In this document: in pieces, positions 9,321 to 52,809 of the stretch
Layout: every line of letters starts with the position of its first letter
Numbering within the stretch: position 1 is the stretch's first letter
NCBI GenBank assembly: GCA_041664165.1
Contig: JBAYLH010000005.1
Coordinates: forward strand, 344 to 64,343
Source of the DNA: Candidatus Buchananbacteria bacterium
Lineage (GTDB): Bacteria > Patescibacteriota > Patescibacteriia > Buchananbacterales > UBA6539
Length of the DNA: 64,000 nucleotides
Reading direction: 5' to 3'
Notes under the pieces: model-generated
The model's input: only the letters and a program-made list of their open reading frames with translations
What the model was told of the DNA's origin: nothing
Databases searched by the model: none
Translations under genes and position numbers: made by a program

Positions 9321-9675
9321 GTAAAAACCTACCTCTCGCCCCCTCACCAAGCCTTTGATTAAACTTTGATATCCAACCGACTAAGCTGTTGGTTTAGCCC
9401 GGATAAGGTAGGCGGTTTCCGACGGGATAACACTTAATTTTTAGGATCACTCATTCGGGCTTGGTGGGGGTGGTCACCAAAAATTTTATTAAGTATGTTT
9501 ATAAGATATAAAAAATTTTAAAGTAAAAGTTAGTAAAAATTATCTTCTCGCCCCGTACTAAGTCGCAAATAAATATTTGAAATTGATCCAAGCCAGCCGC
9601 TAGGCGGTGTTCGCGCCAAAAAAACAAAATGTTAAATTGAAATGAACCGCGGACTTTAGTGCGGGGTCACCAGTT
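9321..9675. repeat. two tandem, diverged copies (9321-9480 and 9531-9675) of a ~150-nt GC-rich structured element; candidate ncRNA or leader structure
   Basis: Both copies start with gtaaaaa..ctctcgcccc and end with ..ggggtggtcacca / ..gcggggtcaccag. Each is closed by a 13-14 bp stem formed from its own ends: ccctcaccaagcc/ggcttggtggggg in copy 1, ccccgtactaag/cttagtgcgggg in copy 2. Both share an internal taggcggt-t-cg motif. GC content is well above the surrounding intergenic DNA. Confidence 0.5.
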
Positions 9676-37697: not shown

Positions 37698-37791
37698 AGT
37701 AATTAAAGGCGACCCCGCTTTTTTACCAATCCGCCGCTGGCGGAAGTGGGCTATTCAAGCCAGCTAAAACCGGGTTATCTAAATTTATATT

Positions 37792-39228
37792 TTATATTTT
37801 TCTCACCACGCCATTATCCGCATCGACTTCCACTTTGTCACCGTCTTTTAAAATTTTGGTTGAGATCTTAGTCCCAACAATACAAGGTATCTTTAATTCT
37901 CTGGCAACAATCGCCGCATGACAAGTCAAACCGCCTTCATCGGTAACTATTGCCGCCGCCTTTTTCATAATCGGCAGCATCTCCGGCCGGGTCATACCGG
38001 TAACCAAAATATCGCCTGATTTCATTTTGTAAAAGCCGCTTTCGCCAAATATCACCTTAACTTCACCTGAAACTTTGCCGCCCGAAGCGACTGTCCCGGA
38101 AATTTTATCAAGCCGGCCATGAATTTTTTTGAACTCTTTTGGGATTCGTTTTTTCGCGTCATTGCCGCTGTAAACTTTAAAAAATTTCTTTTGGTAATCC
38201 ACGTCCAAAATCATAAACTCTTTTCTTTTTTTCAATTCCGCTAAGTTAAAACTTTTTCCATTTTTTAAAACCAGGAGCTCTTCAAGCGTAAAAAATTGAA
38301 GATCCGATAAGCGATAGCCGAATCTTTTTGCCAATTCTTCGCGAATGTCGTCGGCATAAAATATTGACTTGACAAAAATTTCTTTCCGCCGGTCACGCAA
38401 TGGCCCGATTTCATCAACAATATCAATCAACTGCCGGGTTTTTTTATCAAACTTGTACTTTTTAATGATCTGTTTTTTCCGTTTCTCCAAATTTTTCTTA
38501 AAATCCGCCAGGTGTTTTAATTCTTCAGTCAAATTTTTATGCTGTTTGATCAATTCATTGATTCTTTTTGCAAAATAATCGGCATCGACTAGCTTTTTGC
38601 CGCTATGGCCGGTTGCCAGCCATTCATATTTTTTAAGATGGTTGTCTAAATCCTTTTGAATTTTTCGGCCGCTTCTTTTTTTAATCGCTAACCTGATTAA
38701 CTTTTGGGCTTCCAAATTTAAGTAACTGATGTCGGGAATTGCCGCTGAATCGGAAAATTCATCGCTGGAAAGTTTATATTTCATTAATTCTTTTTCAAAA
38801 ATCCGGGGCAAAACGTAATCAAAAGCTTCGGCAAAAAAACCGTAGCTAAACATTTCTTTGTAGCATTTCGTAAAGAAGTCCAAATGACCAAATAAGGCAT
38901 CAACCGACATCGCTGACGGGTTTTTTTGCCGGTACTCCAAGATTTTTTTATCCAATTTTGACTTTAATCCGGCTAATCCTATTTTGATTTTAGCCCTGAA
39001 CTTTTTAGCTTTAAATTTGTTATAGCATTTATTGCCAATTACGATATTGTCTTTAATTAGAGTACTCCATCTAAACGGCTGATTTTTTTCCAAAATTACC
39101 AAATTGCGATCAAAGCCAAACCCGTAAATTTTTCGCATGCCGACAGTCATCGCCCAGGCCGCTTCCGGACAAATCCAATAAATCGCCTCGGCTTCGTCAA
39201 TATCCCATTTCGGATTTGTTTTTTTCAT
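37792..39228 (-). CDS. PEP-utilizer paralog 1: divergent N-terminal domain plus C-terminal phospho-histidine swivel domain (rifampicin-phosphotransferase-like C-terminal half)
   Basis: The C-terminal ~100 aa (GDILVTGMTRPEMLPIMKKAAAIVTDEGGLTCHAAIVARELKIPCIVGT) is a PEP-utilizer mobile domain with the catalytic His. It begins 10-14 nt after the stop codon of the PPDK_N gene. Confidence 0.7.
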   Translation of the reverse strand: MKKTNPKWDIDEAEAIYWICPEAAWAMTVGMRKIYGFGFDRNLVILEKNQPFRWSTLIKDNIVIGNKCYNKFKAKKFRAKIKIGLAGLKSKLDKKILEYRQKNPSAMSVDALFGHLDFFTKCYKEMFSYGFFAEAFDYVLPRIFEKELMKYKLSSDEFSDSAAIPDISYLNLEAQKLIRLAIKKRSGRKIQKDLDNHLKKYEWLATGHSGKKLVDADYFAKRINELIKQHKNLTEELKHLADFKKNLEKRKKQIIKKYKFDKKTRQLIDIVDEIGPLRDRRKEIFVKSIFYADDIREELAKRFGYRLSDLQFFTLEELLVLKNGKSFNLAELKKRKEFMILDVDYQKKFFKVYSGNDAKKRIPKEFKKIHGRLDKISGTVASGGKVSGEVKVIFGESGFYKMKSGDILVTGMTRPEMLPIMKKAAAIVTDEGGLTCHAAIVARELKIPCIVGTKISTKILKDGDKVEVDADNGVVRKI

Positions 39229-39242
39229 ACTTATTTATAACC

Positions 39243-40235
39243 TTATAATGTCGTTATTGGCCGGCTTTGAGTAATGTAAAATTTGCCCTTGGCAAAAGCC
39301 CACTCAATATCCTGCGGCTTTTTATAATGTTTTTCAATCGCCAGACAAATTTTGGCCAGCTCAATTATTTGTCTGCCGGACAGCACTTGAGTTTCCTGTT
39401 TGTTTTTCGGCACCGGCCGCCAAATATTGCCGCCGTTAATTCCTTTTTTTACCAGCATTCTTTTTTGCTCAGAGACATTAATATCAATACTGCTGAAATC
39501 CCGTTTGTCAATCACGTAGCTGTCAGGCGTAATTTGGCCGGAAACAATCGCTTCGCCCAAGCCAAAACCCGCTTCAATAATCATCTGATTTTTATCTTTG
39601 GTAACAGGGTGAACCGTAAAAGTAATCCCGGAAATTTCCGAATCAACCATTTGCTGAACCACGACGGCGACTGAAACTTTCTGGTCGCTTAATTTTTTTT
39701 CATAGCGGTAAAAAATCGCCCGCGGCGTGAAAAGCGACGACCAGCAGAGTCCGACATTTTTTAGCAATGTTTTTTCGGTTGTGTTTAAATAAGTTTCCAG
39801 TTCCCCGGCCCAGGAAGCCACGCTTGAATCTTCCGCCGTCGCCGAAGACCTGACGGCGACATACTTGGTTTTAAGTTTTTTAAATTCCTGTTTTATTTCT
39901 TCGGCTAAAACTTTGGGAATTTTGGTATCAACCATAATATCCCGGATGATATTGGAAGCCTGGTCAATTGAATTGGTGTCTTTAAAATTAACTTTTTTCA
40001 AATTGGCAGCGACTTCCAAACCCACCTCGGCCACTTCTTTTCTGGTTTTCAGGCTCAAAAAATACTCAAAAGCCTCGGCTAAAATCACAAACCCCGGCGG
40101 CACCGGAATTTTGGCTTTAGTCATTTCGCCAAGCGAAGCGCCTTTGCCGCCGGCGATGCCAACGTCAATTTTGGAAATTTGCGAAAATGGCTTGATGAAT
40201 TTAGACATAGATTTAATATCCTTGAGGTTTCCCAT
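39243..40235 (-). CDS. stand-alone PEP-utilizer ATP-binding domain (PPDK_N-like ATP-grasp), 330 aa
   Basis: GGKGASLGEM nucleotide-binding start. The size and ordering of the QQMVDSE.SG..F and IEWA blocks match the N-terminal domain of PEP synthase / pyruvate phosphate dikinase / rifampicin phosphotransferase. Confidence 0.7.
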   Translation of the reverse strand: MGNLKDIKSMSKFIKPFSQISKIDVGIAGGKGASLGEMTKAKIPVPPGFVILAEAFEYFLSLKTRKEVAEVGLEVAANLKKVNFKDTNSIDQASNIIRDIMVDTKIPKVLAEEIKQEFKKLKTKYVAVRSSATAEDSSVASWAGELETYLNTTEKTLLKNVGLCWSSLFTPRAIFYRYEKKLSDQKVSVAVVVQQMVDSEISGITFTVHPVTKDKNQMIIEAGFGLGEAIVSGQITPDSYVIDKRDFSSIDINVSEQKRMLVKKGINGGNIWRPVPKNKQETQVLSGRQIIELAKICLAIEKHYKKPQDIEWAFAKGKFYITQSRPITTL

Positions 40236-41514
40236 CTTTAATCAAAAAGAATCTACTGCCATCATCTTTTTCGCACTCAACGTTCACTTCGCCCATCAAT
40301 ATCATGTCGCAATGGACTTTAGCTCTATTAAAACTAGGGTGGCTTTTGGGAACTCCCATTGAGCCGTTACTGCCAACGGCAATATGAACCGTGCCATACA
40401 TCTTTTCGCCTTCGCTTGACCCGACGTCTTTGGCTTCTTTTCCCCGGCAAGCCATAGTGTTTGTTCCAATACCCAATTCCGCCAAGCGATAAGCATCATT
40501 ATGGCCATTATTACCGGCATTCAAATATGCTTTTACCGATTCAACTAAAGGATTGCCGGTATCATCGCTAATCGGCCGGTTATTGATTTCAGTTACCTCT
40601 CCATTTGCAATAGTCAGCCTTACCGGTCCGTGCTCGTTAACCGCATCAAGCATGTGCTCGCCGCCAATCGGGCCGTTAATCACTAAACTCCCGCTGCTGC
40701 CTTCCCAATTTGGCGAGCAGGCCCATTCGCCGATTGGATAATTACCCATCGAACCCGGCTTGGTAAAATCTTCACTCTCATAGCCCTTGGTCTCCTTAAT
40801 GATTGGCAGCCAAAGGTCGGTGCCGGCCAATGAAGTGAGATGAACTCTTTCAACATTTTTCATCAACTCATTGACTTTATCATCTCTTTCTAAAATTGCT
40901 TCCGCTGACTCCTCCACTGCGCCCTCGGTTAAAATCTCATGGGGATTCTTTCCTTTGGTAATTGAAATGATCCGACAGGCATTCTGGCGGGCAAATTGTT
41001 CCAATTTTTCCCATTGCTCATCAGATAATTTATCTTCCAGACCGGCTAGCTGGCTCTTACTTCTGGCGGCTGACAAAGTGGCGTCTAATTTTTCCCGGTC
41101 AGCAATACTGCGGATTGCCGCCCCGGTTTCTTTTGAGTGCGACCGCGACATGGAAGTAATAATTAATATTGGCGCCTGGCGCTGACTTTCCATTTCTGCC
41201 TCTACATAATCACCCATATCTTCAGCTGATCTTTCCGATTCGGTCAAAACTCTGATTCTAAAATTACCCCTAGCTTTATGTCCAGCCGTCATTGCTTCTA
41301 ATTCGCCTTGAATAGCGGCAATTAATTCCGGCTGAGACTCCATAACGCCGGTATCGGTAATTACCGTCATAGTTTCTTTTTTTGGATCAAAACCGAAGGA
41401 TCCAATAATATTTTTAGCAACCACTGCCATTCTTTCTAATCTTTCCTTTTGTTCAGGGTTTAACTCTTGGGCTGGTAAAAAATTTTCGGCAATCCCCTTC
41501 AAACTTCTTTTCAT
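40213..41514 (-). CDS. putative M29-family aminopeptidase (AmpS/aminopeptidase T-like)
   Basis: About 430 aa with a C-terminal GTVHIAVGSN ... HCDMIL metal-site-like pattern. Start taken at the Met of MKRSLKG (41514); the track ORF extends to 41586. The similarity is recalled, not searched. Confidence 0.4.
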   Translation of the reverse strand: MKRSLKGIAENFLPAQELNPEQKERLERMAVVAKNIIGSFGFDPKKETMTVITDTGVMESQPELIAAIQGELEAMTAGHKARGNFRIRVLTESERSAEDMGDYVEAEMESQRQAPILIITSMSRSHSKETGAAIRSIADREKLDATLSAARSKSQLAGLEDKLSDEQWEKLEQFARQNACRIISITKGKNPHEILTEGAVEESAEAILERDDKVNELMKNVERVHLTSLAGTDLWLPIIKETKGYESEDFTKPGSMGNYPIGEWACSPNWEGSSGSLVINGPIGGEHMLDAVNEHGPVRLTIANGEVTEINNRPISDDTGNPLVESVKAYLNAGNNGHNDAYRLAELGIGTNTMACRGKEAKDVGSSEGEKMYGTVHIAVGSNGSMGVPKSHPSFNRAKVHCDMILMGEVNVECEKDDGSRFFLIKDGKPQGY

Positions 41515-41524
41515 ATTATTATTT

Positions 41525-42349
41525 TTATTTTTTAGAGTTGCATAAAGCCACGGCATGGACGATATGCCAAAAAAAATCTTTTTCATTTCTCGTACCGTCT
41601 TCGTAAACTACGCCCAAATCCAAGTAGTTAGCTGACAACATATTCCAACCCCCCAAATAGAGCAGAGCTTTGATCCAGGAATTGCCAACCAGACCGGTGG
41701 AAGGAACAATTAGATTCCTGCCTTCCCAAACAGCGGTTTCGTACTCCATGTAATATTCTTTGGCATCATAACCTTTGTTGGTTAAATATTCATAAAATTG
41801 AGTGCATTGTTCGCTGATGTTATCCAAAATTTGGTATTCGCCGTGGTGGCTGGACGGCCGCAAAATCCCCATAACTGCAATTTTTGGTTCAATGCCGAAA
41901 TCTTCCTTCATGTGCCTAATCGTTCTTTCAACTTCATAAATTTTATCTTCTAAGTTCAAACCTTGATAAACCGAGCAGGTAGACAGAAAAAAATTATAAT
42001 CGCCTTTCTGCATTATGCCGCCAAACACCTTGCGATTGCTGGGAATGGGCTCAATTCCGAATTCTTTATAAAATACACTCAAGGTAGTTGAGTCTTTTAC
42101 TTGTCCCCTGACAATTCCTTCAACTTTGCCGTCTTTTAACAATTTAATTAAGATTTCACTTGATTTATCTTGATCCGGTTCGACAATATTTTCAAAGCCT
42201 TTTACTTTCGCGCCGACCACGACTAAATCGGCAAATTTTGAGGCCTTTTTTAGGCTTTTGATCGTTTCCGGAATCGGCCGCATAATTGCAATACCAATTT
42301 TTCTTTTTTGTTTTTTAGCTTGGGTTAAAAAAATTTTGGTAAAGTCCAT
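41525..42349 (-). CDS. phosphate acyltransferase (Pta/Ptb-like) family protein
   Basis: KRKIGIAIMRPIPETIKSLKKA ... VVVG ... KIAVMGIL resembles the PTA_PTB fold organisation. Start trimmed to the Met of MDFTKIF. Confidence 0.3.
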   Translation of the reverse strand: MDFTKIFLTQAKKQKRKIGIAIMRPIPETIKSLKKASKFADLVVVGAKVKGFENIVEPDQDKSSEILIKLLKDGKVEGIVRGQVKDSTTLSVFYKEFGIEPIPSNRKVFGGIMQKGDYNFFLSTCSVYQGLNLEDKIYEVERTIRHMKEDFGIEPKIAVMGILRPSSHHGEYQILDNISEQCTQFYEYLTNKGYDAKEYYMEYETAVWEGRNLIVPSTGLVGNSWIKALLYLGGWNMLSANYLDLGVVYEDGTRNEKDFFWHIVHAVALCNSKK

Positions 42350-42359
42350 ACATTTTAAG

Positions 42360-43133
42360 TTAATCATTAAAGATAAAAATTGGCTCCTGATAATGCCTGA
42401 TTTTATTTTCTTCAAACCTTTTTTTAATCAAGTTTTGCAGCTGCTGATTTTTCCAAGTTAAGCCCTTACTGCTTTTCAAAATAACTATCGGCAAATCAAT
42501 TCGTAAAGCCCGGCCGGAAACAAGATGGCGCGTAATCCCCGAGGGCACCTTGAGGTTTTTTTCCGCTACCAAAATGATATCTTGCGGCGTAAACTTAGGA
42601 AAAACAATTAAAGTTTTATTTTCGCCGTTAACCGAAAAATCGCTGGCATTATCCAAGCGATAAAATTTATAACGCTTGGCGTATAAATCAACAATTTTAT
42701 TTAAAGCTTCAATCTGCGTAAAAAAATCTTTCTTTTTAATCGGCCGGCAAACAATTTTATTGCCTCGCAATTTAAATTTCTTAGCCATCGGCTTGCTGAC
42801 CATTTTTTTGATCTGGCTAAAAAAATCTCTGGCCTTGATGCCGGCAACTAAATGATTCCAAGTTTTTAATTCCAGCCCCGGTTGCTGGTAATCAATGACT
42901 TGCACTAAAATATCTTTAAATCCCAATTGACGAAAAACTGTGGTCCGGTTTGCTCCGTCTAAAACGACAAATTTCCCCGACTTGCTGATTGGTGCTACGA
43001 CGGGCGGATTGGTAAAAATATCGTCTTTTTTTATTTTGGCCGCCAACCTTTTGACCCGGTTGGGATCAACATCTTCATGCAAAACCAAATTCGATAAACT
43101 GACAATTTTTAAATTAGGTAAATTTTTGGTCAT
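42360..43133 (-). CDS. ParB/sulfiredoxin-like nuclease-domain protein
   Basis: LVLHEDVDPNRVKRL ... PPVVA ... FVVLDGANRTTVFRQLG matches the ParB N-terminal (ParBc) core. Confidence 0.4.
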   Translation of the reverse strand: MTKNLPNLKIVSLSNLVLHEDVDPNRVKRLAAKIKKDDIFTNPPVVAPISKSGKFVVLDGANRTTVFRQLGFKDILVQVIDYQQPGLELKTWNHLVAGIKARDFFSQIKKMVSKPMAKKFKLRGNKIVCRPIKKKDFFTQIEALNKIVDLYAKRYKFYRLDNASDFSVNGENKTLIVFPKFTPQDIILVAEKNLKVPSGITRHLVSGRALRIDLPIVILKSSKGLTWKNQQLQNLIKKRFEENKIRHYQEPIFIFND

Positions 43134-43139
43134 ACTTAA

Positions 43140-43772
43140 TTACTTAAACTTTTTTTCATTAGCCAGCAAATCTTTTAAGTTGCCAATCTGCCACCAGTCA
43201 GCTTTTTTAGCTAACCCTGAATTATTATTCAAAATATGGTAAATTCGCCGGGAAAAACCAAGATATTTTTTCTGCACTAATTTTACCGCTTCAATAAACA
43301 TTTGGCAATTTGTCAATTTATCATCGGTATAAACGACCGTTTTATAGCCTTGCTGATATTTCTTTTGCAAATAACCAACTAGCATCTCTTCGGTCTTTTT
43401 GTTGGTCTCGCCGTAGTCAAAAGTGGTATTGATTTTTTGAAAATATTTCCGAAAATCAAAGCCAGTTTTTGGCACCAAATACGCCGCTCGCCAATCCATC
43501 TGCTCCGGCACGCCCGTGGTAAAGGCTTCGTTATGCTTTGCCAAAATTAATGCTTCTTTTGCCCCCGGCTGCAGTTTGAGCTGAAAATACCAGCCTTTTT
43601 CATAAGGAATTTGATACGTCTCTTCATATTCACGGTCAGAAACTTCAGAAATTTTTTTACCCAGTTGAGCCGCCACCCAGGCATCGTAATTTGGCCAGCC
43701 GGTTTTTTCTTTATCCCAAACCTCATAAAAAATCGTGCCCGCCAAATCCCAAAGATAAAGAGTCTTATTCAT
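43140..43772 (-). CDS. hypothetical protein (possible degenerate HAD-like fold)
   Basis: LYLWDLAGTIF resembles HAD motif I, but the second Asp is Ala. No other motif recognised. Confidence 0.25.
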   Translation of the reverse strand: MNKTLYLWDLAGTIFYEVWDKEKTGWPNYDAWVAAQLGKKISEVSDREYEETYQIPYEKGWYFQLKLQPGAKEALILAKHNEAFTTGVPEQMDWRAAYLVPKTGFDFRKYFQKINTTFDYGETNKKTEEMLVGYLQKKYQQGYKTVVYTDDKLTNCQMFIEAVKLVQKKYLGFSRRIYHILNNNSGLAKKADWWQIGNLKDLLANEKKFK

Positions 43773-43864
43773 ATTTTAATTTATCTCAATTTTTTCTGAA
43801 TCTATTATTTTGCCATCATTATCAAATTTAAATTGCTCACAGAAATGCGGCACTTCTTCCGCTG

Positions 43865-44554
43865 TTATCCCCCCCCCCTATCTTCATAAAGTGCCTGCCC
43901 CAATGACCCGGAATGGCCGACGGCAAACAAAACAATGGGTGACTGCCGTCGATTTGAATCACTATCTTTCGACTGCTTTATACTGTCATGAACCAATTTG
44001 ACGAATTGTCGATATCTTTCCGCTGATTCCTTGGGCAATATTTCAGGAGCTATATCATTATTTGGATTATTCATGTCGTTCAGCCACCTGTATGTCGCTT
44101 CTTCTTCACTAATACCCTCCTCTTTTATCATCCTATCATAAGGATCCCAGGTATCAGGGCTTGAATCAGCTAACATGCTTACGATCTCTTTTCCATCAAT
44201 TTCCAACATATCAATTATTTTATCCTTTCCCTCACGCTGGCTTAAACGTTCATTAACCAAGTGACGACATAATTTAGCCCTGTCTTTACCGCTATCAAGC
44301 GTTACTAAAATTGACTGCACCGGCAATTTATCATAAAGATTATCAGCTAATTTGAGACTGCGCTGAATTCCTTCAAGCTTAAGAGGTGTTTCACCGGCCT
44401 CAAGCATTTCCGGAAACTCATTTTTTAAAACTCCCATTACCAAGCTTATTTGCTCAGCTGGAAAAACTCGTGACAATGATTCTTCGCTTATTTGCCATGA
44501 TCCCTTATCTGCATGACGAGTAATAATAGAGTCACCATTTCTTAATTTGTCCAT
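43865..44554 (-). CDS. histidine-phosphatase-superfamily-like protein ending in a G10/C10 homopolymer
   Basis: IITRHADKGSW (RHG-like) and LFAVGHSGSLG (second His). The last codons, GGG GGG GGG, are encoded by a 10-C run at 43869-43878. Confidence 0.3.
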   Translation of the reverse strand: MDKLRNGDSIITRHADKGSWQISEESLSRVFPAEQISLVMGVLKNEFPEMLEAGETPLKLEGIQRSLKLADNLYDKLPVQSILVTLDSGKDRAKLCRHLVNERLSQREGKDKIIDMLEIDGKEIVSMLADSSPDTWDPYDRMIKEEGISEEEATYRWLNDMNNPNNDIAPEILPKESAERYRQFVKLVHDSIKQSKDSDSNRRQSPIVLFAVGHSGSLGQALYEDRGGG

Positions 44555-44570
44555 ATTTTTTTATTATTAA

Positions 44571-46157
44571 TTATTTTCTTTTTAAAATCGTTACCACTCC
44601 GTGATTGCCGTTAACCTCGACTAGATCCCCGTCTTTGAGAACTTCCGTGGCAATTTTCGTGGCAATCACGCAGGGAATGCCCAGCTCTCGGGCAATGATG
44701 GCGGCGTGACAAGTAACTCCACCTTCGTTAGTAACAATCGCCGCGGCTTTTTTAATCCCCATGATATAATCCGGCCGCGTCATCACGGCTACCAAAATAT
44801 CGCCCGAATTAACTTTGCCGACTTCATGAGCGCTTTTGACGATTTTAACCATGCCCCGCACTTTGCCACTGGAAGCGCTTAAGCCGCGAAAATCATTAAT
44901 ATTTTTTTTGATGCCGGTTTTAAATATCGCCTTCTGCAGCTGACGAGCTTCTTTCCCGGCGACTATTTCATAAGTCTGTTTATGATCATAATGAAAACTG
45001 AATTCCCTTCGTTTTCTGGCTTCGTTTCGGGAAACATAATGCCCTTGGCCGGTAAACAAAGTTATGACTTCGAAATAAAACAGACATTTCATTTCCACCA
45101 AGGAATAACCAAAGCGTTTACCGATTTCCGCCAAAAAAACTGAGCCGCAATGAGTCGCCAGAAAAGTACATTTTTTTCGCTCGTCTTGCCAATAAGTAAA
45201 AGTTTCGGAAATTTCAATTAGATTAACCAAAAATTTGGGCAGCTTTAATTTTTTTATTAATTTCTGCTTGTTAATTTTGCTTTTTCGGGGTGAGCCTTCA
45301 ATCCTTTTAATTTGCCCGGCCAAATCAATTTCATTTTTTAACAATTCCTTGATTTCCTTGATAAAAAAAGAAATGTTTAGAATATGGCTGTCAACATAGT
45401 TATTTTTACCCCAAAAATAATTTTGCCGGTGTTTTTGCAAAATTTGATATTCGGCCGAAAAATTCCTTATTTTTTTTAAAATTAGACTCAAATTATCAGC
45501 GATAAAAATTTTTCTTAATTTCTGGTTTTGATAAATTTTCAAAGCGACTTTCAATAAAGCAATTTCCGCTTCATTGATGAATGATTGGCTGGTCGGCGCC
45601 GTCAGAACGGAAAAAATTATTCCCCGGCCTTTAATGATTTTTTTACTGTCCAAAAATTTATTTAACTCCGTTTGAATATACTCATCGCTGCCCAAGGCGA
45701 AACCATCAATAACTGAACTCATTGTTGTCCAGCCAAAATATGACCTGAAAAAATCTTGATATAAATTTTTTAATTCCTCGTCAGATAGCCTGGTTAAATT
45801 TATTTTATCCAATTCATCGCATTTTTTTATAAAAGCAATTTTATCTTTATCCCATTTCTGCATAATTTTTTTGCCGATGCCAAAGGGCTCGCAAAAACTT
45901 TTTTTAATAAAAATACTACAAACACGGCGAATATCGGCTAAATCAATATACCAATCAACCCGATTATCATTAAAAATTATCAAATGATTCGTAAATTCCC
46001 CGCCTTTTTCTTTTCTTGGTTCCGGCTTAAGCTCCATCTGGCCAATTAAATAAATAAGATTCGGACAACCGTCAAACCTTTGGTGATACCATTCTTTTTT
46101 CTTTAATTTTTTTAGGTCTTTTTTAATTAAGCCTTTTTTAAACTGCATGCAAGACAT
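44571..46157 (-). CDS. PEP-utilizer paralog 2 (divergent N-terminal domain plus His swivel domain)
   Basis: C-terminus GDILVAVMTRPDYIMGIKKAAAIVTNEGGVTCHAAIIARELGIPCVIAT. Confidence 0.7.
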   Translation of the reverse strand: MSCMQFKKGLIKKDLKKLKKKEWYHQRFDGCPNLIYLIGQMELKPEPRKEKGGEFTNHLIIFNDNRVDWYIDLADIRRVCSIFIKKSFCEPFGIGKKIMQKWDKDKIAFIKKCDELDKINLTRLSDEELKNLYQDFFRSYFGWTTMSSVIDGFALGSDEYIQTELNKFLDSKKIIKGRGIIFSVLTAPTSQSFINEAEIALLKVALKIYQNQKLRKIFIADNLSLILKKIRNFSAEYQILQKHRQNYFWGKNNYVDSHILNISFFIKEIKELLKNEIDLAGQIKRIEGSPRKSKINKQKLIKKLKLPKFLVNLIEISETFTYWQDERKKCTFLATHCGSVFLAEIGKRFGYSLVEMKCLFYFEVITLFTGQGHYVSRNEARKRREFSFHYDHKQTYEIVAGKEARQLQKAIFKTGIKKNINDFRGLSASSGKVRGMVKIVKSAHEVGKVNSGDILVAVMTRPDYIMGIKKAAAIVTNEGGVTCHAAIIARELGIPCVIATKIATEVLKDGDLVEVNGNHGVVTILKRK

Positions 46158-46160
46158 ATA

Positions 46161-46230
46161 CTATTTTATTTTTTTAACCACGCCTTTATCAGCATCTACC
46201 TCAATTCTGTCGCCTGTCTGAAAAACCAAG
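46161..46230 (-). pseudogene. remnant of the last ~20 codons of a PEP-utilizer paralog (..FQTGDRIEVDADKGVVKKIK*), fused to REP sequence
   Basis: The tail matches the DRIEVDAD.G..KKI C-termini of the intact paralogs. The upstream part of the 64-aa track ORF is a translation of hairpin repeats. A second, ~8-codon tail remnant (AERVVKKI*) lies at about 46893-46920. Confidence 0.55.
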
Positions 46231-46242
46231 GCCGTGGTCTTT

Positions 46243-46350
46243 AAAAAAAATGGCGACCCGACTTTTCCGCCCGAGGCGGATGCGCCCTGACTGCCGTCAG
46301 GGCGGCGATAGGCAGGCTTTGGCGCAAGTCGGCATTCATTTAAATAATTT
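46243..46350. repeat. REP/BIME-like hairpin block, left flank of the RAYT gene
   Basis: The aaaaaaaatggcgacccgactt ... gtcggcattcatttaaataattt unit recurs at 46942-46996. Internal perfect hairpins: cgccctgac tgcc gtcagggcg (46283-46303) and ccgcc cga ggcgg. Confidence 0.65.
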
Positions 46351-46863
46351 ATCAAAGTTAGTTCTATCTTCCAAATTTAAGGCATTAACTGATAAAATCA
46401 GATCCTGAATCGTCTGCTCTCCATATTGAGCCGCCCCTTGCTTGCAGCTGGTAAAGGGACTGCTATTCAATTCATCAAAATTCTTGGCTTCTCCATGTTT
46501 TAAAAGATTACCTAAGATATAGCCTAAAACCTTTTTTAATTTTTCCTCGTCCACCACTTTTTCCCAATACTCGCCCCAGACGCTCCGCTTGATATTATTT
46601 AAAACATTTAATTCATGGGAACTGCCGCCGGCGATAAATTGTTCTAATTTTGGCAAAACCTCGCCTTTTGGTAAATAAATCAGGTAATGGTAATGATTGG
46701 AAATAATACTGAAGGCATGGAGCGAAAAATTAAATTTTTTTTGAGCGGCCATCAAACGATTTAAAATGATTTTCTTCTTATCAGCGGTGTCAAACAGCTT
46801 TTCATGGTTATTGGTTGAGCGAGTGACAAAATAATAGCAATCATCAAAGTATAAATGAATCAT
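46336..46863 (-). mobile_element. REP-associated tyrosine transposase (RAYT; IS200/IS605 TnpA-like, HUH Y1)
   Basis: HUH motif SNHYHYLIY, an N-terminal YYFVTRSTNNHEKLF block typical of RAYT/IS200 TnpA, and ~175 aa length. It is flanked on both sides by hairpin-rich repeats. Confidence 0.65.
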
Positions 46864-47008
46864 ATAATCTGTTATAGCCGACTAAAGTCGGGTTACCTAA
46901 TTTATTATATTTTTTTAACTACTCTCTCGGCAAAAATGAACTTTAAAAAAATGGCGACCCGACTTTAGTCGGCATTCATTTAAATAATTTCTCGTCGGGT
47001 TACCTAAT
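46864..47008. repeat. REP/BIME-like hairpin block, right flank of RAYT
   Basis: Contains gccgactaaagtcgg hairpins, two copies of gggttacctaatttatt, and a direct copy of the aaaaaaatggcgacccgactttagtcggcattcatttaaataattt unit. Confidence 0.65.
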
Positions 47009-48334
47009 TTATTTTATTTTTCTAATTATTCCTTCATCGGCATCAACCTCAATTCTGTCACCGTCTTTAAAGACTTTCGTTGCTATTTCGGTACCAACCA
47101 CACAGGGAATTTTCAGCTCCCGGGCGACAATGGCCGAATGCGAAGTAAAGCCTCCGATATCGGCCACAATGGCTGAAACTTTATGCAAAACCGGCATATA
47201 ATCTGGCATGGTAATTTCACAAACAATAATATCACCTTTTTTTACCTTGTTGAACTCGGCCGTTGAAAGCACAACTTTTGCGATTCCTCGGACAATGCCG
47301 GCAGAAACGCCTTTGCCAGAAACTTGATCTTTTTTTTCGAAAACTCGGTTAAAAAGTTGGTAAATTTTGGCCGCCGGCTCGCCGGTATAAATATTATTTT
47401 TAATGTTGACATACCGCTTCTGTCGCAAAGTCAAATCAACTGGAATTTTTTTAGCCATAACTTCTTGGGGTTTGAGATGAATTAATTCGTCACAACTCAA
47501 ACCCAGCCGCCGGCCCAGCTCTTTGAACAAAGGATAAAAATTATAAATGCCGCGCAGAAATTGTTCAAACCGAAAATCTCGAATGTAAAGCAATCTCTGT
47601 GAAATCTCAGCTTGTTTTTTTAGTCCGGCCGGCAATTTTTTATATATCTGAAAATAACGTTTTTCGGAATTTTGATGCTGCTTTTCCATTTCCGCCAATT
47701 CCTTTTTGGGATTTTTGATGGCGGCTAGCTGTTCTTTGAGGTAAAAATCATCGACAGTTTTAAAAGCCGCCAATTCAATATTGCTCCAAGCCCATTTGGT
47801 TTTAAACTCGCTTTTTTTTATTTGGCCAGACCTGAGAAGCAATAAATCCTTTTTTCGGCGCTGGTTGTAAGTGTTGGATAAAGGGTAGGTTAAAGCGTCA
47901 AATTCTTTATTGGTTAAACCGAATCGCAAAAGCGAATTGATTAATTTTTTCTCAAAATGATATGAGGCATAAACAGAAATATCAATGATCCTTAAATAAT
48001 TGCCCCAAAGCCGATAACACTCCTTAAACGATTTAACTAGGCTGGGCCAACTAGCCTCGACAAAACTTCTCCTATATTTTTTTGAGGCGGCGACATATTC
48101 CCGCGCTCGCTTGTCAATTAAATTTATAACCTTTACGATTTCTTGATCCGATAAATAATATTTGGCTAAATCTTTTTTACTAAAAAACCATTGACCGTCA
48201 AGATAAATTAGTTCGACATTGCTAAAGCCGTCTTTAGCCATTCTTTGCCTTTCCCTAATTTCGGCCGATGACAAAAAAACTGATTCTTTGCCATAAAAAA
48301 GTTTAATGTAATTTTTCGGGTTAAGCTTAATCAT
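47009..48334 (-). CDS. PEP-utilizer paralog 3 (divergent N-terminal domain plus His swivel domain)
   Basis: C-terminus GDIIVCEITMPDYMPVLHKVSAIVADIGGFTSHSAIVARELKIPCVVGT. Confidence 0.7.
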   Translation of the reverse strand: MIKLNPKNYIKLFYGKESVFLSSAEIRERQRMAKDGFSNVELIYLDGQWFFSKKDLAKYYLSDQEIVKVINLIDKRAREYVAASKKYRRSFVEASWPSLVKSFKECYRLWGNYLRIIDISVYASYHFEKKLINSLLRFGLTNKEFDALTYPLSNTYNQRRKKDLLLLRSGQIKKSEFKTKWAWSNIELAAFKTVDDFYLKEQLAAIKNPKKELAEMEKQHQNSEKRYFQIYKKLPAGLKKQAEISQRLLYIRDFRFEQFLRGIYNFYPLFKELGRRLGLSCDELIHLKPQEVMAKKIPVDLTLRQKRYVNIKNNIYTGEPAAKIYQLFNRVFEKKDQVSGKGVSAGIVRGIAKVVLSTAEFNKVKKGDIIVCEITMPDYMPVLHKVSAIVADIGGFTSHSAIVARELKIPCVVGTEIATKVFKDGDRIEVDADEGIIRKIK

Positions 48335-49791
48335 TATATTTTTTTAACTATTCCCTCATTGGCATCAACTTCAATCCTATCCCCTGTCTTAAAAACTTGA
48401 GTGGCAATTTTAGTTCCGACAATGCACGGGATACCAAGCTCGCGCGAGACAATGGCCGCGTGACAAGTAATACCGCCATCATCCGTAACAATGGCGGCGG
48501 CTTGGCGCATGGCCGGCAAATAGTCAATGGTAGTCATTGACGCCACTAAAACACCGCCCTTTTTGACGATTTTTAAAGCTTCTCTGGCTCCTTTTACCAC
48601 AAAAGCTTGCCCTACCACCTTGCCTCGGCTAGCTGAAACACCGGTAACCTGAGAAGTTTTACTGGCCTTAATTTCTGAAAGAACCAATTTATCTAAAATT
48701 TTCTTTGCTTCCAAGCCTAAATATTCTTTGATTTTTCCTCGTTTAATCACCCAGGTTAAACCCTGCTGGCGTTCAGCAATCAGCGATTTATCAACTTTAA
48801 TATTTTTTAAACACAAATTTTTAATCTCCGAATTATCATAAAATACCAAATCTCGATATTTAAGTTTAAACCTTTTTGCCATCATTCGCAAAGCCGGAAA
48901 AATAATCTGGTTAGAACGCATTTGCGTTTCCTTTCGCCAGTCATGAAACATGGCAAAAGCATCCAAGAGATGAAAATATGGCTTTAGTTTTCCAAAAGAC
49001 AAATGATATTTATTTACCAAATCATTTCTTCCGGCTTCAACTGATTTAATAAAATTATTAATTCGTTTCAATTCCTCGCTTCTTAAATCAAAACTTTTTA
49101 TTTTCAATTTTTTTATGTCTTTTTCAATGCGGCCGACAGTCAGTTCATTGCTGCCGTCCCAGCCCATCATAATCCAGCCAAAACGCTTAGCCATTTTTTT
49201 CAAATCAGCCTGACTAACAATTTTATTCAGGGAAAATTGCAAAAGATTTTTTTTATAAAGCAAACTTTCGGAAATATAGGCGGGTTCCATCAATTGGCCT
49301 AAATCGGTTTGATTAATTTTGTTTTTGGCCATTAATTGCAGCTTTTCGCTAAAAATTTTACCAAAAAAATCATCAAATAAATCGGTAGTATATTCGGAAA
49401 AACTAATGCTTTTTAAAAACACCTGCTGGGCTTGGCGATACAAATTATACAGTTCCTGATCGGTTATATTTTTTAATTCGGCATCTCTCAAAGGCAGTAA
49501 AATTGTTTTGACCTCGCATTGGGATTTCCGGTATAAAGAAAAAATTTTATTGAATTCGGTTTTATCGGTTAGCCATTTTTTTAACCAGCGGCGCAGGGTT
49601 TTTTCCAAATAATCAGCATCGCGCGACCAGTAAAAATAATCCTGGCAATAAGCCATGACTTCATAATGATTGGCCAAATAAGGATATTTTTTCGAAGGCG
49701 AAAGCTTAATCAAATCCAAATAAGCCGACATACCTTGCGGATAAAGCCGATCCCGCTCGTAAACCCGCCAATTGATTTTTTTAGTAGGCAT
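48334..49791 (-). CDS. PEP-utilizer paralog 4
   Basis: C-terminus VLVASMTTIDYLPAMRQAAAIVTDDGGITCHAAIVSRELGIPCIVGT. Its stop overlaps the start of paralog 3 by 1 nt. Confidence 0.7.
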   Translation of the reverse strand: MPTKKINWRVYERDRLYPQGMSAYLDLIKLSPSKKYPYLANHYEVMAYCQDYFYWSRDADYLEKTLRRWLKKWLTDKTEFNKIFSLYRKSQCEVKTILLPLRDAELKNITDQELYNLYRQAQQVFLKSISFSEYTTDLFDDFFGKIFSEKLQLMAKNKINQTDLGQLMEPAYISESLLYKKNLLQFSLNKIVSQADLKKMAKRFGWIMMGWDGSNELTVGRIEKDIKKLKIKSFDLRSEELKRINNFIKSVEAGRNDLVNKYHLSFGKLKPYFHLLDAFAMFHDWRKETQMRSNQIIFPALRMMAKRFKLKYRDLVFYDNSEIKNLCLKNIKVDKSLIAERQQGLTWVIKRGKIKEYLGLEAKKILDKLVLSEIKASKTSQVTGVSASRGKVVGQAFVVKGAREALKIVKKGGVLVASMTTIDYLPAMRQAAAIVTDDGGITCHAAIVSRELGIPCIVGTKIATQVFKTGDRIEVDANEGIVKKI

Positions 49792-49792
49792 A

Positions 49793-51346
49793 TTATTTAA
49801 TTTTTTTCACTGTGCCGTTATTCATATCCATTTCAATCAAATCGTTGTTTTTTAAAATTCTAGTTGCTGTTTTTGTCCCAATAATACAGGGAACCCCAAG
49901 CTCCCGAGACACAATCGCTGCGTGGCACGTCAAACCGCCTTCGTCAGTGACAATGGCTTTGACCCGGCGCAACAAAGGCAAAAATTCCGGCCGCGTCATA
50001 GTAGTAACTAAGATATTTCCAGCTTTAAAATTCTGCCGATTAACGTCCAAAATAACCTGTGCCTTACCGCTGATTTTTTCAACCGGCGCACAAGCCACTT
50101 GGCCTTTTATTTCCGTACCGTTTAAAATTTTTGAAAACAAATTATAAATTGATTTAGCCTGGCCGCCATAAAAAATTTTTTCTTCACAGCGCCAGTTTTT
50201 TGACCGAATCACAACTTGGGCTGAAAATTTCCGCCTTGATTCTAACAAAGCAGTAAGCACTTTTTTGTTGTTTATAAGCAAATCATGAAATTCCTCTGAC
50301 GTATAGTATTTGACCAAGCCGACATCTTGTTTAAATCGTTTAGCAACTTGCTGACAAAAAATTTCGTTATAATGATCAGCTATTGTCATAAATTTTTTCC
50401 GGTCATCTATCCATTCTGCCATATAAGCTACGATTAAAAAATGCCGTTTTAAATTTTTAGAAAAATTATATTGTTTTAGGTATTTTTTCTTGGCTTGTTT
50501 GAGTCGGGAAACTTTTGTTGAAAAATTATTAAATATTGCCAATAATTCATTTTTAGTTTTCTCTAATGCCAAAATTTTCATCCGATCTAAAAAATACTGC
50601 TCATCTAATATCTGAGCTTTTTGAAAATTATTACCAATCCAAAAATAGCTTTTAACTAATTTTTTAAGTATTATTCGTAAAGTCGGCAGTTTTAAAATAA
50701 TTTTTTCAGATTCAATTTTGTTTTTGTCTGATAAAATTTTGTAGGCCAAAATTGCTCCCTTGAAAATTAGATACTCTTCTTTTTCTAAAAATGACAACTT
50801 TACCGGCGCGGAAAAAGTTATGGCAATATCCAAAGCTTTATTTTCAGATAAGCCGGAAGTTTCTTTTTTAATTAACCCAATCAATTTTTCGCTGGAAAAA
50901 ATATCAGTACACTCTAAAGCCATGCCATAGCGAATAAAATCCATATAAGCTTTTTCACCATAAAAATTTTGATAAAACTTCCATAATTGTTTATTATTGA
51001 CATTGGAAATATTTTTTTCCAATATTTTGCCAGCCGCTAGAAAATGACTGACAAATTTTTCACTGGCCTTTCTCAAATTTTTTAAATAATTTTTATTTTT
51101 TAAAACCTGATCATAAATATAATAATAAACCTTTAATTTCTCATCGGCTGGAGTCAATTCGGAAAAAAAATCATTGCGATAGATAAAAACAGACAAGGTT
51201 AGATATTTTGGATGAAAATATTTAGCTTGCTCAATAAAAGCTCTAAGTGGCCATCCAACGAAAGCGTAAACCCCTGGCGCTTCTTCCAACCACCAAGTAT
51301 GATTATTAATCTCTTCTAATACTGATGACAAATTAATATTTTTCAT
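49793..51346 (-). CDS. PEP-utilizer paralog 5
   Basis: C-terminus GNILVTTMTRPEFLPLLRRVKAIVTDEGGLTCHAAIVSRELGVPCIIGT. Confidence 0.7.
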   Translation of the reverse strand: MKNINLSSVLEEINNHTWWLEEAPGVYAFVGWPLRAFIEQAKYFHPKYLTLSVFIYRNDFFSELTPADEKLKVYYYIYDQVLKNKNYLKNLRKASEKFVSHFLAAGKILEKNISNVNNKQLWKFYQNFYGEKAYMDFIRYGMALECTDIFSSEKLIGLIKKETSGLSENKALDIAITFSAPVKLSFLEKEEYLIFKGAILAYKILSDKNKIESEKIILKLPTLRIILKKLVKSYFWIGNNFQKAQILDEQYFLDRMKILALEKTKNELLAIFNNFSTKVSRLKQAKKKYLKQYNFSKNLKRHFLIVAYMAEWIDDRKKFMTIADHYNEIFCQQVAKRFKQDVGLVKYYTSEEFHDLLINNKKVLTALLESRRKFSAQVVIRSKNWRCEEKIFYGGQAKSIYNLFSKILNGTEIKGQVACAPVEKISGKAQVILDVNRQNFKAGNILVTTMTRPEFLPLLRRVKAIVTDEGGLTCHAAIVSRELGVPCIIGTKTATRILKNNDLIEMDMNNGTVKKIK

Positions 51347-52809
51347 ATTTTTTTAACTGTCCCCTTGCCAGTATCAACTTCTACCAAGTCCCCGTCTTTC
51401 AAAACCTTGGTGGCAATTTTGGTGCCGACAATGCACGGTATGCCAAGCTCGCGCGAAACAATGGCCGCGTGGCTAGTCATCCCGCCTTCGTCAGTGATAA
51501 TGGCGGCGGCCTTTTTAATCACGACAATATAATCGGGCGAAGTCATCGGGGTGACTAAAATTTCGCCTTTTTCCATGGTTTTGAAATCAGCGGCGGAATT
51601 TATAATCCTGACTTTCGCCGCAACTTTTTTGCCGCGGCTGACCACCAAACCCTTAAATTCACTGATTTTTTTATTGGCGGCCTTTGCCGCGGGCGGAATA
51701 AATTGAGCGATAATCTTTTTTGCCGGCGCGCCGGAAACATATTTCAAAGAATTGCTATTCTGCGAATAATGAACGACTAAATAATTCTGCCGACTTTTGA
51801 TTTCTTCGGCGGAAATTTTTTTACCCTTCTCGGCCAAATCCAAAGTCTCATAAACATTGTAAAAATGCAGATCATTAAAACTCAGGCCGTATCGTCTGGC
51901 AAATTCAGCCAAAAATAAGTCAATATAATGATTGGCCAAAAAAATGTAATATTTCCTTAAATCTTGCCACCAAACGCAAAAACTCAAACGGCTGGCGATT
52001 TTTTTAATTACCGGCGTAATTTTATATTTCCTGGCCAATTCGTCTTTTTCCTTTTTCACCCGCCGACTGAAAAATTCTAATTCTTTAATTTTAGCTTGGG
52101 CTTTTTTCAAGCTATAACCGGCCAGTTCATTTTCAAAATATTTTCTATCTAAAATTTTAGTATGATGATAGCTGTTTAAAAGCCAAAAATGGTTTTTTTG
52201 ATAATTAACTAATTTACTTTCGAATAAGGCCTGACGCTTTTCATATTTTTTTAATTTTAGCAGCTCCAAATCCGCCTTTTGATAAAAAGATAAATTTTCC
52301 GGAGCCGACAACCTTTCAAAAACAAAAATAAAATCTTTTGGCTGAATTATTTTTTCCAAAATTTTTTTTAAAATATCCTCCGCTCCCCAATTCGCGACTT
52401 CCGGCAATAAACCGAATTTCCAGAAATTGACATAAGCTTTGACCCAATTTTTATAAAATTTCGCCAGCTGCCGGTCGGTTAAATTCCTCAGCCGATCTTT
52501 TGTTATATCTTTTTGCAAATCCAACAAAAGATTAACGCTATTATGCCATAGCCCATAATACCGTTTTAAATTTTTACCAGCCAAAACAAACCGATTAAAA
52601 TTATTCCGCCCGCTTTTTCTTAAATTGGCAAAATCGACTATGGCAATCATTTTGTCCGGATAATATTCCAGCCATAAAACATCGGGCCAGCTATAAAAAG
52701 TTTTTTGGTACTGCGTGAAAGCTACATTAAAAAAATCGGGGTAAATCAACTTGCCGTCAATCGGACCCCAACGAAATAATTCCGCCTTCGGGTTGATATC
52801 AATCTTCAT
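51343..52809 (-). CDS. PEP-utilizer paralog 6
   Basis: C-terminus GEILVTPMTSPDYIVVIKKAAAIITDEGGMTSHAAIVSRELGIPCIVGT. It overlaps paralog 5 by 4 nt. Confidence 0.7.
   Translation of the reverse strand: MKIDINPKAELFRWGPIDGKLIYPDFFNVAFTQYQKTFYSWPDVLWLEYYPDKMIAIVDFANLRKSGRNNFNRFVLAGKNLKRYYGLWHNSVNLLLDLQKDITKDRLRNLTDRQLAKFYKNWVKAYVNFWKFGLLPEVANWGAEDILKKILEKIIQPKDFIFVFERLSAPENLSFYQKADLELLKLKKYEKRQALFESKLVNYQKNHFWLLNSYHHTKILDRKYFENELAGYSLKKAQAKIKELEFFSRRVKKEKDELARKYKITPVIKKIASRLSFCVWWQDLRKYYIFLANHYIDLFLAEFARRYGLSFNDLHFYNVYETLDLAEKGKKISAEEIKSRQNYLVVHYSQNSNSLKYVSGAPAKKIIAQFIPPAAKAANKKISEFKGLVVSRGKKVAAKVRIINSAADFKTMEKGEILVTPMTSPDYIVVIKKAAAIITDEGGMTSHAAIVSRELGIPCIVGTKIATKVLKDGDLVEVDTGKGTVKKI

Follow-up and report, generated by a model that had tools for sequence, protein, structure and literature searches.

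A probable REPtron in a swivel-domain gene array of a Patescibacteria genome: a RAYT gene between inverted REP hairpins and displaced gene tails

The subject of this report is a 64-kb stretch of DNA (the window), analysed at its full length, from a metagenome-assembled genome (MAG) of Candidatus Buchananbacteria in the Patescibacteriota (contig JBAYLH010000005.1, positions 344 to 64,343), and in particular a small gene of the REP-associated tyrosine transposase (RAYT) kind that lies between P3 and P2, two members of a tandem array of paralogs on the minus strand. The locus is probably a REPtron, that is, a single-copy and selectively maintained RAYT between inverted cognate repetitive extragenic palindromes (REPs), and it carries the traces of a tandem duplication; we give this reading a probability of about 0.7. 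Fragments of paralog 3' ends are found among the repeats, and these orphan tails would most simply be by-products of an insertion into, and a duplication around, the 3' end of P3. The REPtron is a known kind of element, here in a little-studied phylum, and the gene had already been labelled by the Joint Genome Institute (JGI), whose annotation of an identical protein reads 'REP element-mobilizing transposase RayT'. The window is contained in a 72.7-kb contig (ENA ERZ27249449 k141_394303), from which a contig of another sample differs by 1 mismatch.

The preliminary description of this DNA, made from its letters alone, had proposed a HUH/Y1 transposase-like gene of 175 amino acids (aa), and its open reading frame (ORF), Pfam match, catalytic residues and fold all agree with that proposal.
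46336..46863, minus strand: RAYT / TnpA_REP-like Y1 HUH gene, 175 aa, intact, between P3 and P2; the ORF contains SNHYHYLIY.
The protein matches the Pfam Y1_Tnp model at 29.1 bits, above the gathering cut-off of 23. Across 13 homologs (40-82% identity) the residues H57-Y-H59, Y115, N119, K122 and H123 are invariant, and in HMMER alignments the HUH, tyrosine and asparagine residues pair with the HMH and YIYIN motifs of Escherichia coli TnpA_REP (4ER8). A search of the PDB with phmmer alone gave a weak match to 4ER8 (E=0.05), so the fold was assigned by predicted structure. The AlphaFold (AF2) model, built on an alignment of 11 sequences, has a pLDDT of 91.5, and its top Foldseek match in the PDB is 4er8_A, which is TnpA_REP with a REP hairpin (E=4.8e-10, TM 0.70/0.74, root-mean-square deviation 2.6 Å); against the TnpA proteins of IS608, ISDra2 and IS200 the TMq is ~0.50. 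By sequence and model, then, the predicted protein is a genuine RAYT, a HUH/Y1 protein of the TnpA_REP type. Pairwise ratios of nonsynonymous to synonymous substitution (dN/dS) against relatives are 0.07-0.11, which argues that the gene is selectively maintained, and no second RAYT copy was found in the 64-kb window. If it acts as E. coli TnpA_REP does, the protein would bind a folded REP on single-stranded DNA, and would cleave and rejoin the strand beside it.

On both sides the gene is bordered by repeats and gene tails. Read on the coding (minus) strand, the order is X1, a truncated REP, 'gag', U1, X2, REP_L, 13 nt, RAYT, U2, X3 and P2, and the parts are as follows.
47009..47073, minus strand: X1, the tail now used by P3; with X3 it forms a direct repeat around a putative ~785-nt insertion.
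46994..47008, minus strand: truncated copy of REP_L that consists of the foot and 5' arm, ATTAGGTAACCCGAC, and immediately follows the P3 stop.
46941..46993, minus strand: U1, probably left over from a second cassette, made up of the 3'-terminal 18 nt of a RAYT ORF (TGA included), the hairpin GCCGACTAAAGTCGGGTCGCC, a foot and a T-run.
46902..46940, minus strand: X2, short paralog-tail fragment ending in AERVVKKI and two stops, between U1 and REP_L.
46877..46901, plus strand: REP_L, hairpin GCCGACTAAAGTCGGGT and foot TACCTAAT, inverted relative to REP_R.
46241..46353, minus strand: U2, the 3'-terminal 18 nt of the RAYT ORF and REP_R, with foot GTCGCC and a T-run; the REP loop holds a 61-nt insert.
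46266..46326: GC-rich insert in the REP_R loop, 61 nt, with the hairpins GCGCCCTGAC..GTCAGGGCGC and TCCGCC..GGCGGA.
46161..46240, minus strand: X3, the displaced original 3' end of P3, ending in VFQTGDRIEVDADKGVVKKIK and a stop, directly upstream of the P2 start.

With a covariance model of the REP (R1), strong scores in the window fall only on two intact copies, both at the RAYT: REP_L, which sits 13 nt before the RAYT start (core 46877-46893; 34.2 bits, E=2e-12), and a short REP_R inside U1 (core 46957-46973; 36.9 bits, E=1e-13). A third copy, the REP_R of U2 (46256-46333), is interrupted; its arms are at 46327-46333 and 46256-46262, and U2 folds as an outer REP stem around two or three inner hairpins (z=-3.3). 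The Logan contig L002 stops within REP_R, as would be expected if the repeat had broken the assembly. The 15-nt foot ATTAGGTAACCCGAC is found twice in the window as an exact match, with 0.03 expected: at 46994-47008, where it adjoins the P3 stop, and at 46887-46901, where it adjoins X2 and is completed to the hairpin ACCCGACTTTAGTCGGC to form REP_L. The unit of ~45 nt that had been described on both sides of the gene is a real repeat but measures ~52 nt (46942-46993) and includes the 3' end of the RAYT. Its copies match at 96% (46241-46265 against 46942-46966, and 46327-46353 against 46967-46993), the downstream one being split by the 61-nt insert, and 100 shuffles gave 0 such matches. Because the unit opens with 18 nt from the very end of the RAYT ORF, stop included, its upstream copy is a relic of a RAYT 3' end and not a REP alone. 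The hairpin first reported here, GCCCTGACTGCCGTCAGGGC, is present at 46284-46303 but belongs to the loop insert; as the GCCCTGAC hairpin of that insert, it is unique in the window. Two junctions are each present twice, the one between a tail and REP_L (38 nt, 89% identity) and the one between REP_R and a tail, or U-X, which has CTTTAAAAAAA in common. The 64-aa ORF at 46161-46355 (minus strand) is an artefact of REP, GC-rich insert and displaced gene tail, and is not a gene.

The tails themselves were correctly recognized as two paralog 3'-end fragments fused to the repeats. X3 has clear homology over 46161-46224, corresponding to 20 codons and the stop, is identical to the P3 tail at 51/62 nt and to the P4 tail at 49/63, and ends 3 or 12 nt before the start of P2, depending on which of two in-frame ATGs is chosen. 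An 18-mer of X2, TAGTTAAAAAAATATAAT, equals the P4 tail at 48333-48350 exactly, with 0.09 chance matches expected. X1 and X3 form a repeat of 83% identity (47010-47062 against 46162-46214), or 53/65 nt overall. Within X2 (46904-46933, minus strand), ~40 nt upstream of the RAYT start, is also the region's closest match to a sigma-70 site, TTGCCG-18 nt-TATAAT (10/12 positions), and this remnant may now serve as the RAYT promoter.

The hairpins on either side are, to judge from their sequences and distribution, the cognate REPs of the RAYT. The REP has a 5-bp stem, a foot and the consensus GCC-NN-CT-R-AAG-NN-GGGT. The pattern GCC-NN-CT-R-AAG-NN-GGG, which does not require complementarity, has 93 matches, and in 90 of these the two central stem positions are complementary, with five pair types. 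The GA/TC class is inflated, since most such loci were fetched by that exact sequence; outside it, 24 matches are complementary and 3 are not, where chance would give 1 in 16. The hairpin flanks RAYT homologs of 40-82% identity in L004, L005, L009, L033, L035/L048, L047, L049, L051 and L054 (L numbers denote loci from other genomes), and the inverted flanking arrangement recurs in 9 homolog loci. It is often multi-copy at these homologs, lies upstream of the RAYT in L005, L049 and L051 as it does here, and the RAYT stop often falls in the hairpin loop (L004, L005, L047, L048, L049, L051, L054). The conserved foot, GGGT..., is on the 3' side, and other genomes read GGGTAG, GGGTGG or GGGTAA; the REP belongs to a non-canonical (non-GTAG) class. 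A long 40-nt 'REPIN-like' inverted repeat (46877-46916 / 46934-46973) was considered and rejected as a real hairpin; outside its two 16-nt REP cores it is AT-rich and complementary at 13/24 positions by hand count.

A scan for the exact REP 17-mer in one genome per GTDB species, a set that does not include the source MAG, found 38 loci, and a metagenome scan found 3. The REP is dispersed in several copies in a number of Patescibacteria MAGs: KR13_S3.mb.1 has 23 REP copies on 7 contigs, in arrays with a period of 63-67 nt, and the Buchananbacteria genome MHIE01 has the REP on 3 contigs, while one Parcubacteria contig has 3 separate loci. Three genomes of the multi-copy scan have a RAYT homolog beside a REP copy (L035, L033 and L009), the last of these being the RAYT of KR13_S3.mb.1, at 42% identity. 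The arrays of that genome (L017, L020, L021, L022, L037, L039) consist of ACCCGACTTTAGTCGGC alternating with GCGGGCTGAAGCCCGG hairpins, and they are likely assembly breakpoints because many of them lie at contig ends. Five contigs of a Planctomycetota-labelled MAG, JALSGI01 (L014, L016, L023, L030, L043), also carry the 17-nt REP core, there flanked by a conserved GC-rich sequence, gctaaacacgtACCCGACTTTAGTCGGCgga. Unless that bin is mixed, the REP hairpin core would be common to repeat families outside Patescibacteria. In the window itself a further trace is a degenerate doublet.
37708..37778, minus strand: degenerate REP doublet without a RAYT, directly after the P1 stop; 12.0 and 7.7 bits with the covariance model R1.
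The doublet repeats the tail-REP arrangement of the RAYT locus, and its second REP has a loop insert, TCCGCCAGCGGCGGA, of the TCCGCC..GGCGGA type. In the intergenic region at ~9590-9672, beside a small GC hairpin (GCCGCTAGGCGG), the sequence GGACTTTAGTGCGGGGTCACC near 9640 resembles a degenerate REP and has an GGGTCACC foot; it may be an eroded REP but is a doubtful relic. Rfam searches, at gathering thresholds over the whole window and with permissive settings over 46100-47100, returned nothing meaningful, the sub-threshold matches being to miRNA-like palindromes.

The origin of the tails can be read from the surrounding array, whose members are as follows.
51343-52809, minus strand: paralog P6.
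49793-51346, minus strand: paralog P5.
48334-49791, minus strand: paralog P4.
47009-48334, minus strand: paralog P3, with its stop at 47009-47011.
44571-46157, minus strand: paralog P2.
37792-39228: paralog P1, a sixth member, after a stand-alone PPDK_N ATP-grasp gene.
The five tandem paralogs each have a C-terminal PEP-utilizers 'swivel' domain. Searching with P3 led to relatives with syntenic arrays (L055, L056-58 and L059/L060). All five genes have orthologs in L056 and L059/L060, in the order P6-P5-P4-P3-P2; in L056-58, which are Buchananbacteria, and L059/L060, one of which is on a 922-kb contig, the orthologs of P6, P4, P3 and P2 are 56-72% identical in aa and have the same neighbours. 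P3 overlaps or abuts P2 in all of these, and neither RAYT nor REP was found at their syntenic arrays. X3 and the start of P2 align base for base with the P3|P2 junction of L059 from ~GTTTTT onwards (attgaggtNgatgctgataaaggc, 24/25). Being collinear with the relatives' junction, X3 marks the place of P3's own 3' end, and no gene appears to be missing between P3 and P2. Sequence similarity was tried as an arbiter of the original P3 tail and set aside: X1 and X3 are equally similar to the L059 tail, at 46/63 each, so that position alone discriminates between them. X1 also matches the P4 tail at 52/62, as though tails had been homogenised within the genome. P3 now ends in the duplicate tail X1, and its original end, X3, has been left beside P2. 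The ~785 nt between X1 and X3 thus have the appearance, in sequence, of an insertion flanked by a long direct target repeat of ~64 nt.

A history that would account for this arrangement begins with a cassette, [REP_L-RAYT-REP_R], inserted within the last ~64 nt of P3 in the conserved P6-P5-P4-P3-P2 array. The tail duplication could have arisen if the conserved tails had served for one crossover or for template switching. U1, X2 and the second REP foot would then come from a partial tandem duplication of [tail-REP_L-RAYT-REP_R], a step that unequal crossing-over between direct tail repeats would make easy. The upstream cassette copy would later have undergone a deletion of ~560 nt that begins in the REP_L loop and reaches codon ~169 near the RAYT stop, possibly through a GA microhomology, and the X2 tail would have been shortened too. 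We infer both this order of events and the preference for homologous or illegitimate recombination over RAYT catalysis at the junctions. That the upstream repeat reflects duplication of the cassette, and not deletion of a paralog, follows from the presence of RAYT coding sequence in U1.

Several points weigh against the REPtron reading as set out so far. The top NCBIfam model for the protein, REP_Tyr_transpos, scores 61.8 bits against a curated cut-off of 80. The feet at the locus are GGTAAC and GGCGAC, and they lack the canonical 5' GT[AG]G tetranucleotide on which the REP hairpins of classical RAYT systems stand (PMC6006769). Intact REPs occur in the 64-kb window only at the RAYT, to which one degenerate doublet and one doubtful relic can be added, and no cleavage site could be mapped at the locus. 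The proposed history requires ~5 steps. Finally, the last 18 nt of X2 are nearer to the P4 tail than to X1 or X3, and the model consequently needs gene conversion among tails.

Classical REPtrons are considered immobile, and the occurrence of this cassette in differing slots of one orthologous array bears on whether they truly are. In L005-L007 a RAYT of 82% aa identity lies between the orthologs of P5 (71-81%) and P4 (78%), with one REP per side and without tail fragments; the window's own P5|P4 junction, TAA-T-ATG, is seamless. The same slot in L055 holds REP_L, 175 nt and REP_R, and no RAYT remnant was detectable between these L055 REPs. Elsewhere, the RAYT of L049 lies between unrelated genes and that of L003 (81%) between lgt and trbC. 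Since such close homologs occupy differing array slots and contexts, the cassette appears to relocate on a scale of ~20% protein divergence. Three further homologs (66-78% identity) lie upstream of uvrA, and uvrA was not found in the window. Such relocation is out of the ordinary, RAYTs having been described as positionally stable (PMC6006769, PMC5581495).

Around L003 9700-10800 the RAYT is flanked by arrays of two other hairpins, GAGGTTAAAACCTC and GCCGGTTTCAACCGGC, and not by the ACCCGAC REP; its REP partner may thus have been switched at high protein identity. One of the homologs upstream of uvrA (L054, 338-664) was called as 108 aa, a length that looks like a start-site artefact because in-frame sequence immediately before the TTG start encodes residues ~30-68, including the HUH motif; the first ~28 codons are missing, and the copy thus seems to be truncated at its N-terminus.

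From these contexts a tentative and rather unlikely picture can be drawn, in which the cassette of the Patescibacteria clade still moves, targets the A-rich 3' ends (…AAAATAA) of swivel-domain paralogs and leaves long tail duplications, while the GC-rich module (GCGCC..GGCGCA-TCCGCC..GGCGGA) would be, separately, a distinct mini-element that enters REP loops.

It is unlikely that [REP_L-RAYT-REP_R] is still an autonomous mobile element of the IS200 kind, with the junctions made by Y1 integration and excision. In its favour are the 81-82%-identical RAYTs in four contexts (P3|P2 here, P5|P4 in L005, unrelated genes in L049 and lgt/trbC in L003), the 66-78%-identical homologs upstream of uvrA, the A-rich ...AAATAA that always precedes the REPs, and the window's seamless P5|P4 junction, which looks as if precisely excised. 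The synonymous divergence (dS) between the window and L005 is also lower for the RAYT (0.77) than for the adjacent P4 (1.42), a contrast that is given little weight because both values are noisy and near saturation. However, the window has a single cassette copy in 64 kb and each relative locus holds one, the RAYT-flanking hairpins are inverted with their feet outward where the end hairpins of IS200/IS605 elements are on the same strand, and the fold is nearer to TnpA_REP than to the TnpA of IS608 or ISDra2. Strong purifying selection on the RAYT speaks for a maintained gene, and Y1 transposition yields no target duplication, yet a tail duplication of ~64 nt is present here.

It is still more doubtful that X2 and X3 are all that is left of one or two additional paralogs deleted by REP/RAYT-mediated recombination, as the preliminary description had supposed. 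Both remnants do follow a REP_R unit at the same boundary, the end of X2 is identical to the tail of P4 rather than of P3, and copy number varies in the group, with at least 9 paralogs in L055, one of them an extra member that lies between P3 and a gene whose tail is of the P2 type. Against this, L056 and L059/L060 keep the identical set of five orthologs with P3 abutting P2, the X3|P2 sequence is collinear with their intact junction so that X3 occupies P3's own end, U1 carries RAYT coding sequence and hence comes from duplication of the cassette, and the paralogs, being only 27-41% identical, are ancient. By its position X3 is P3's own displaced end, and P3 carries the duplicate (53/65 nt). 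The related suggestion that the array is actively diversifying finds indirect backing alone, in the paralog number of L055 and in the different cassette slot of L005. Mutual identity among the paralogs is only 27-41% aa, which argues for an old family and no recent amplification. Array copy number differs among relatives, from 5 to at least 9 (L055), and no tie of this variation to the RAYT cassette is seen.

A reading of the hairpins as plain intrinsic terminators or fortuitous palindromes, and of the ORF as an unrelated small gene, can practically be dismissed: U1 is flagged as terminator-like (a 5-bp stem, then a T-run), but the terminator-like count is 2 against 1.7 in shuffles and the stems are only weak 5-bp ones, while the hairpin is conserved with compensatory stem changes, in both orientations, beside RAYT homologs down to 40% identity and in arrays of other genomes. 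The earlier text had itself reserved this outcome for a protein without the Y1 tyrosine and HUH geometry and for repeats occurring nowhere else; the protein has both the tyrosine and the HUH motif, its model agrees with TnpA_REP, and other copies of the repeats do exist elsewhere.

Comparison with known systems places the REPtron reading in context. Like E. coli TnpA_REP (4ER8), its closest structural match, the RAYT is predicted to have a monomer-type fold, unlike the dimeric IS200 TnpA, and combines HUH with a single catalytic tyrosine and an Asn four residues later, even though sequence identity is only ~17%. The E. coli REPtron is likewise a single gene between inverted cognate REPs, with REP doublets elsewhere too. 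The REP described here, with its 5-bp stem and 4-nt loop, is much shorter than that of E. coli and has, in place of the E. coli-type 5' GTAG foot, a GGGT-type foot on the 3' side; unlike in E. coli, the RAYT stop is in or beside the REP in many homologs, the host is a small-genome Patescibacteria MAG, and few REPs occur within 64 kb. Pseudomonas and Enterobacteria have REPIN-RAYT systems (Bertels & Rainey; PMC3116915, PMC5581495) in which, as at this locus, purifying selection maintains a RAYT by vertical descent and in one copy (here, one in the 64-kb window), inverted REP doublets are found beside the RAYT and also away from it (window 37708-37778; L008, L015), and some genomes have tandem arrays (KR13_S3.mb.1). 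Those systems differ in their high genome-wide REPIN abundance, where the REP counts here come from a 64-kb window only, and in the positional stability of classical RAYTs, whereas the present cassette occupies differing slots in close relatives. With the TnpA of IS200/IS605 elements (IS608, ISDra2) the RAYT has in common the HUH/Y1 superfamily, a hairpin-flanked gene and an apparent relocation between related genomes; it differs in its weaker structural match (TMq ~0.50), inverted end hairpins, single copy in the window and lack of tnpB.

To our knowledge, work on REP-RAYT systems has been almost confined to Proteobacteria, and full-text literature searches found no relevant paper naming RAYT/REPIN together with Patescibacteria, Parcubacteria or 'candidate phyla radiation'. 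The locus and its relatives point to a compact, non-GTAG class of REP with RAYT in the streamlined genomes of Patescibacteria. For annotation, the arrangement accounts for the spurious 64-aa ORF as well as for the 'orphan tails', which should not be taken for lost genes.

The GC-rich insert of REP_R belongs to a recurrent module, (GCGCC..GGCGCA)-TCCGCC-N3-5-GGCGGA(-TGC/TCTGCC..), that is found in MAGs of different phyla, often in or beside REP hairpins. Related modules of the form TCCGCC-N3-5-GGCGGA adjoin REPs at window 37730, L055 4040, L025 3064 and L015 2478, and away from REP cores at L029 3633 and L036 485. Loop inserts are present at the matching position of the REP in four other loci; inserts of other sequence are found at this loop position in L051 (gcctgcctgccggcaggcaggc) and L047 (24 and ~48 nt). 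To judge from these occurrences, the GC-rich module may be a separate mini-element, or the REP loop may be an insertion hotspot.

The genes around the locus resemble a split dikinase-like system (window 37792-52809, with 39243-40235), in which the PPDK_N ATP-grasp gene is followed by P1 and accompanied by the five-protein tandem array. The array proteins combine a divergent N-terminal part of ~400 aa, without a Pfam match, and a conserved phosphohistidine swivel domain, and one homolog carries the JGI label rifampicin phosphotransferase. In L055, where the P3 ortholog is 76% identical, the extra member separates P3 from a gene that joins a P2-type tail to a body only 32% identical to P2. Synteny of the dikinase-like array is kept in Buchananbacteria and in other Patescibacteria.

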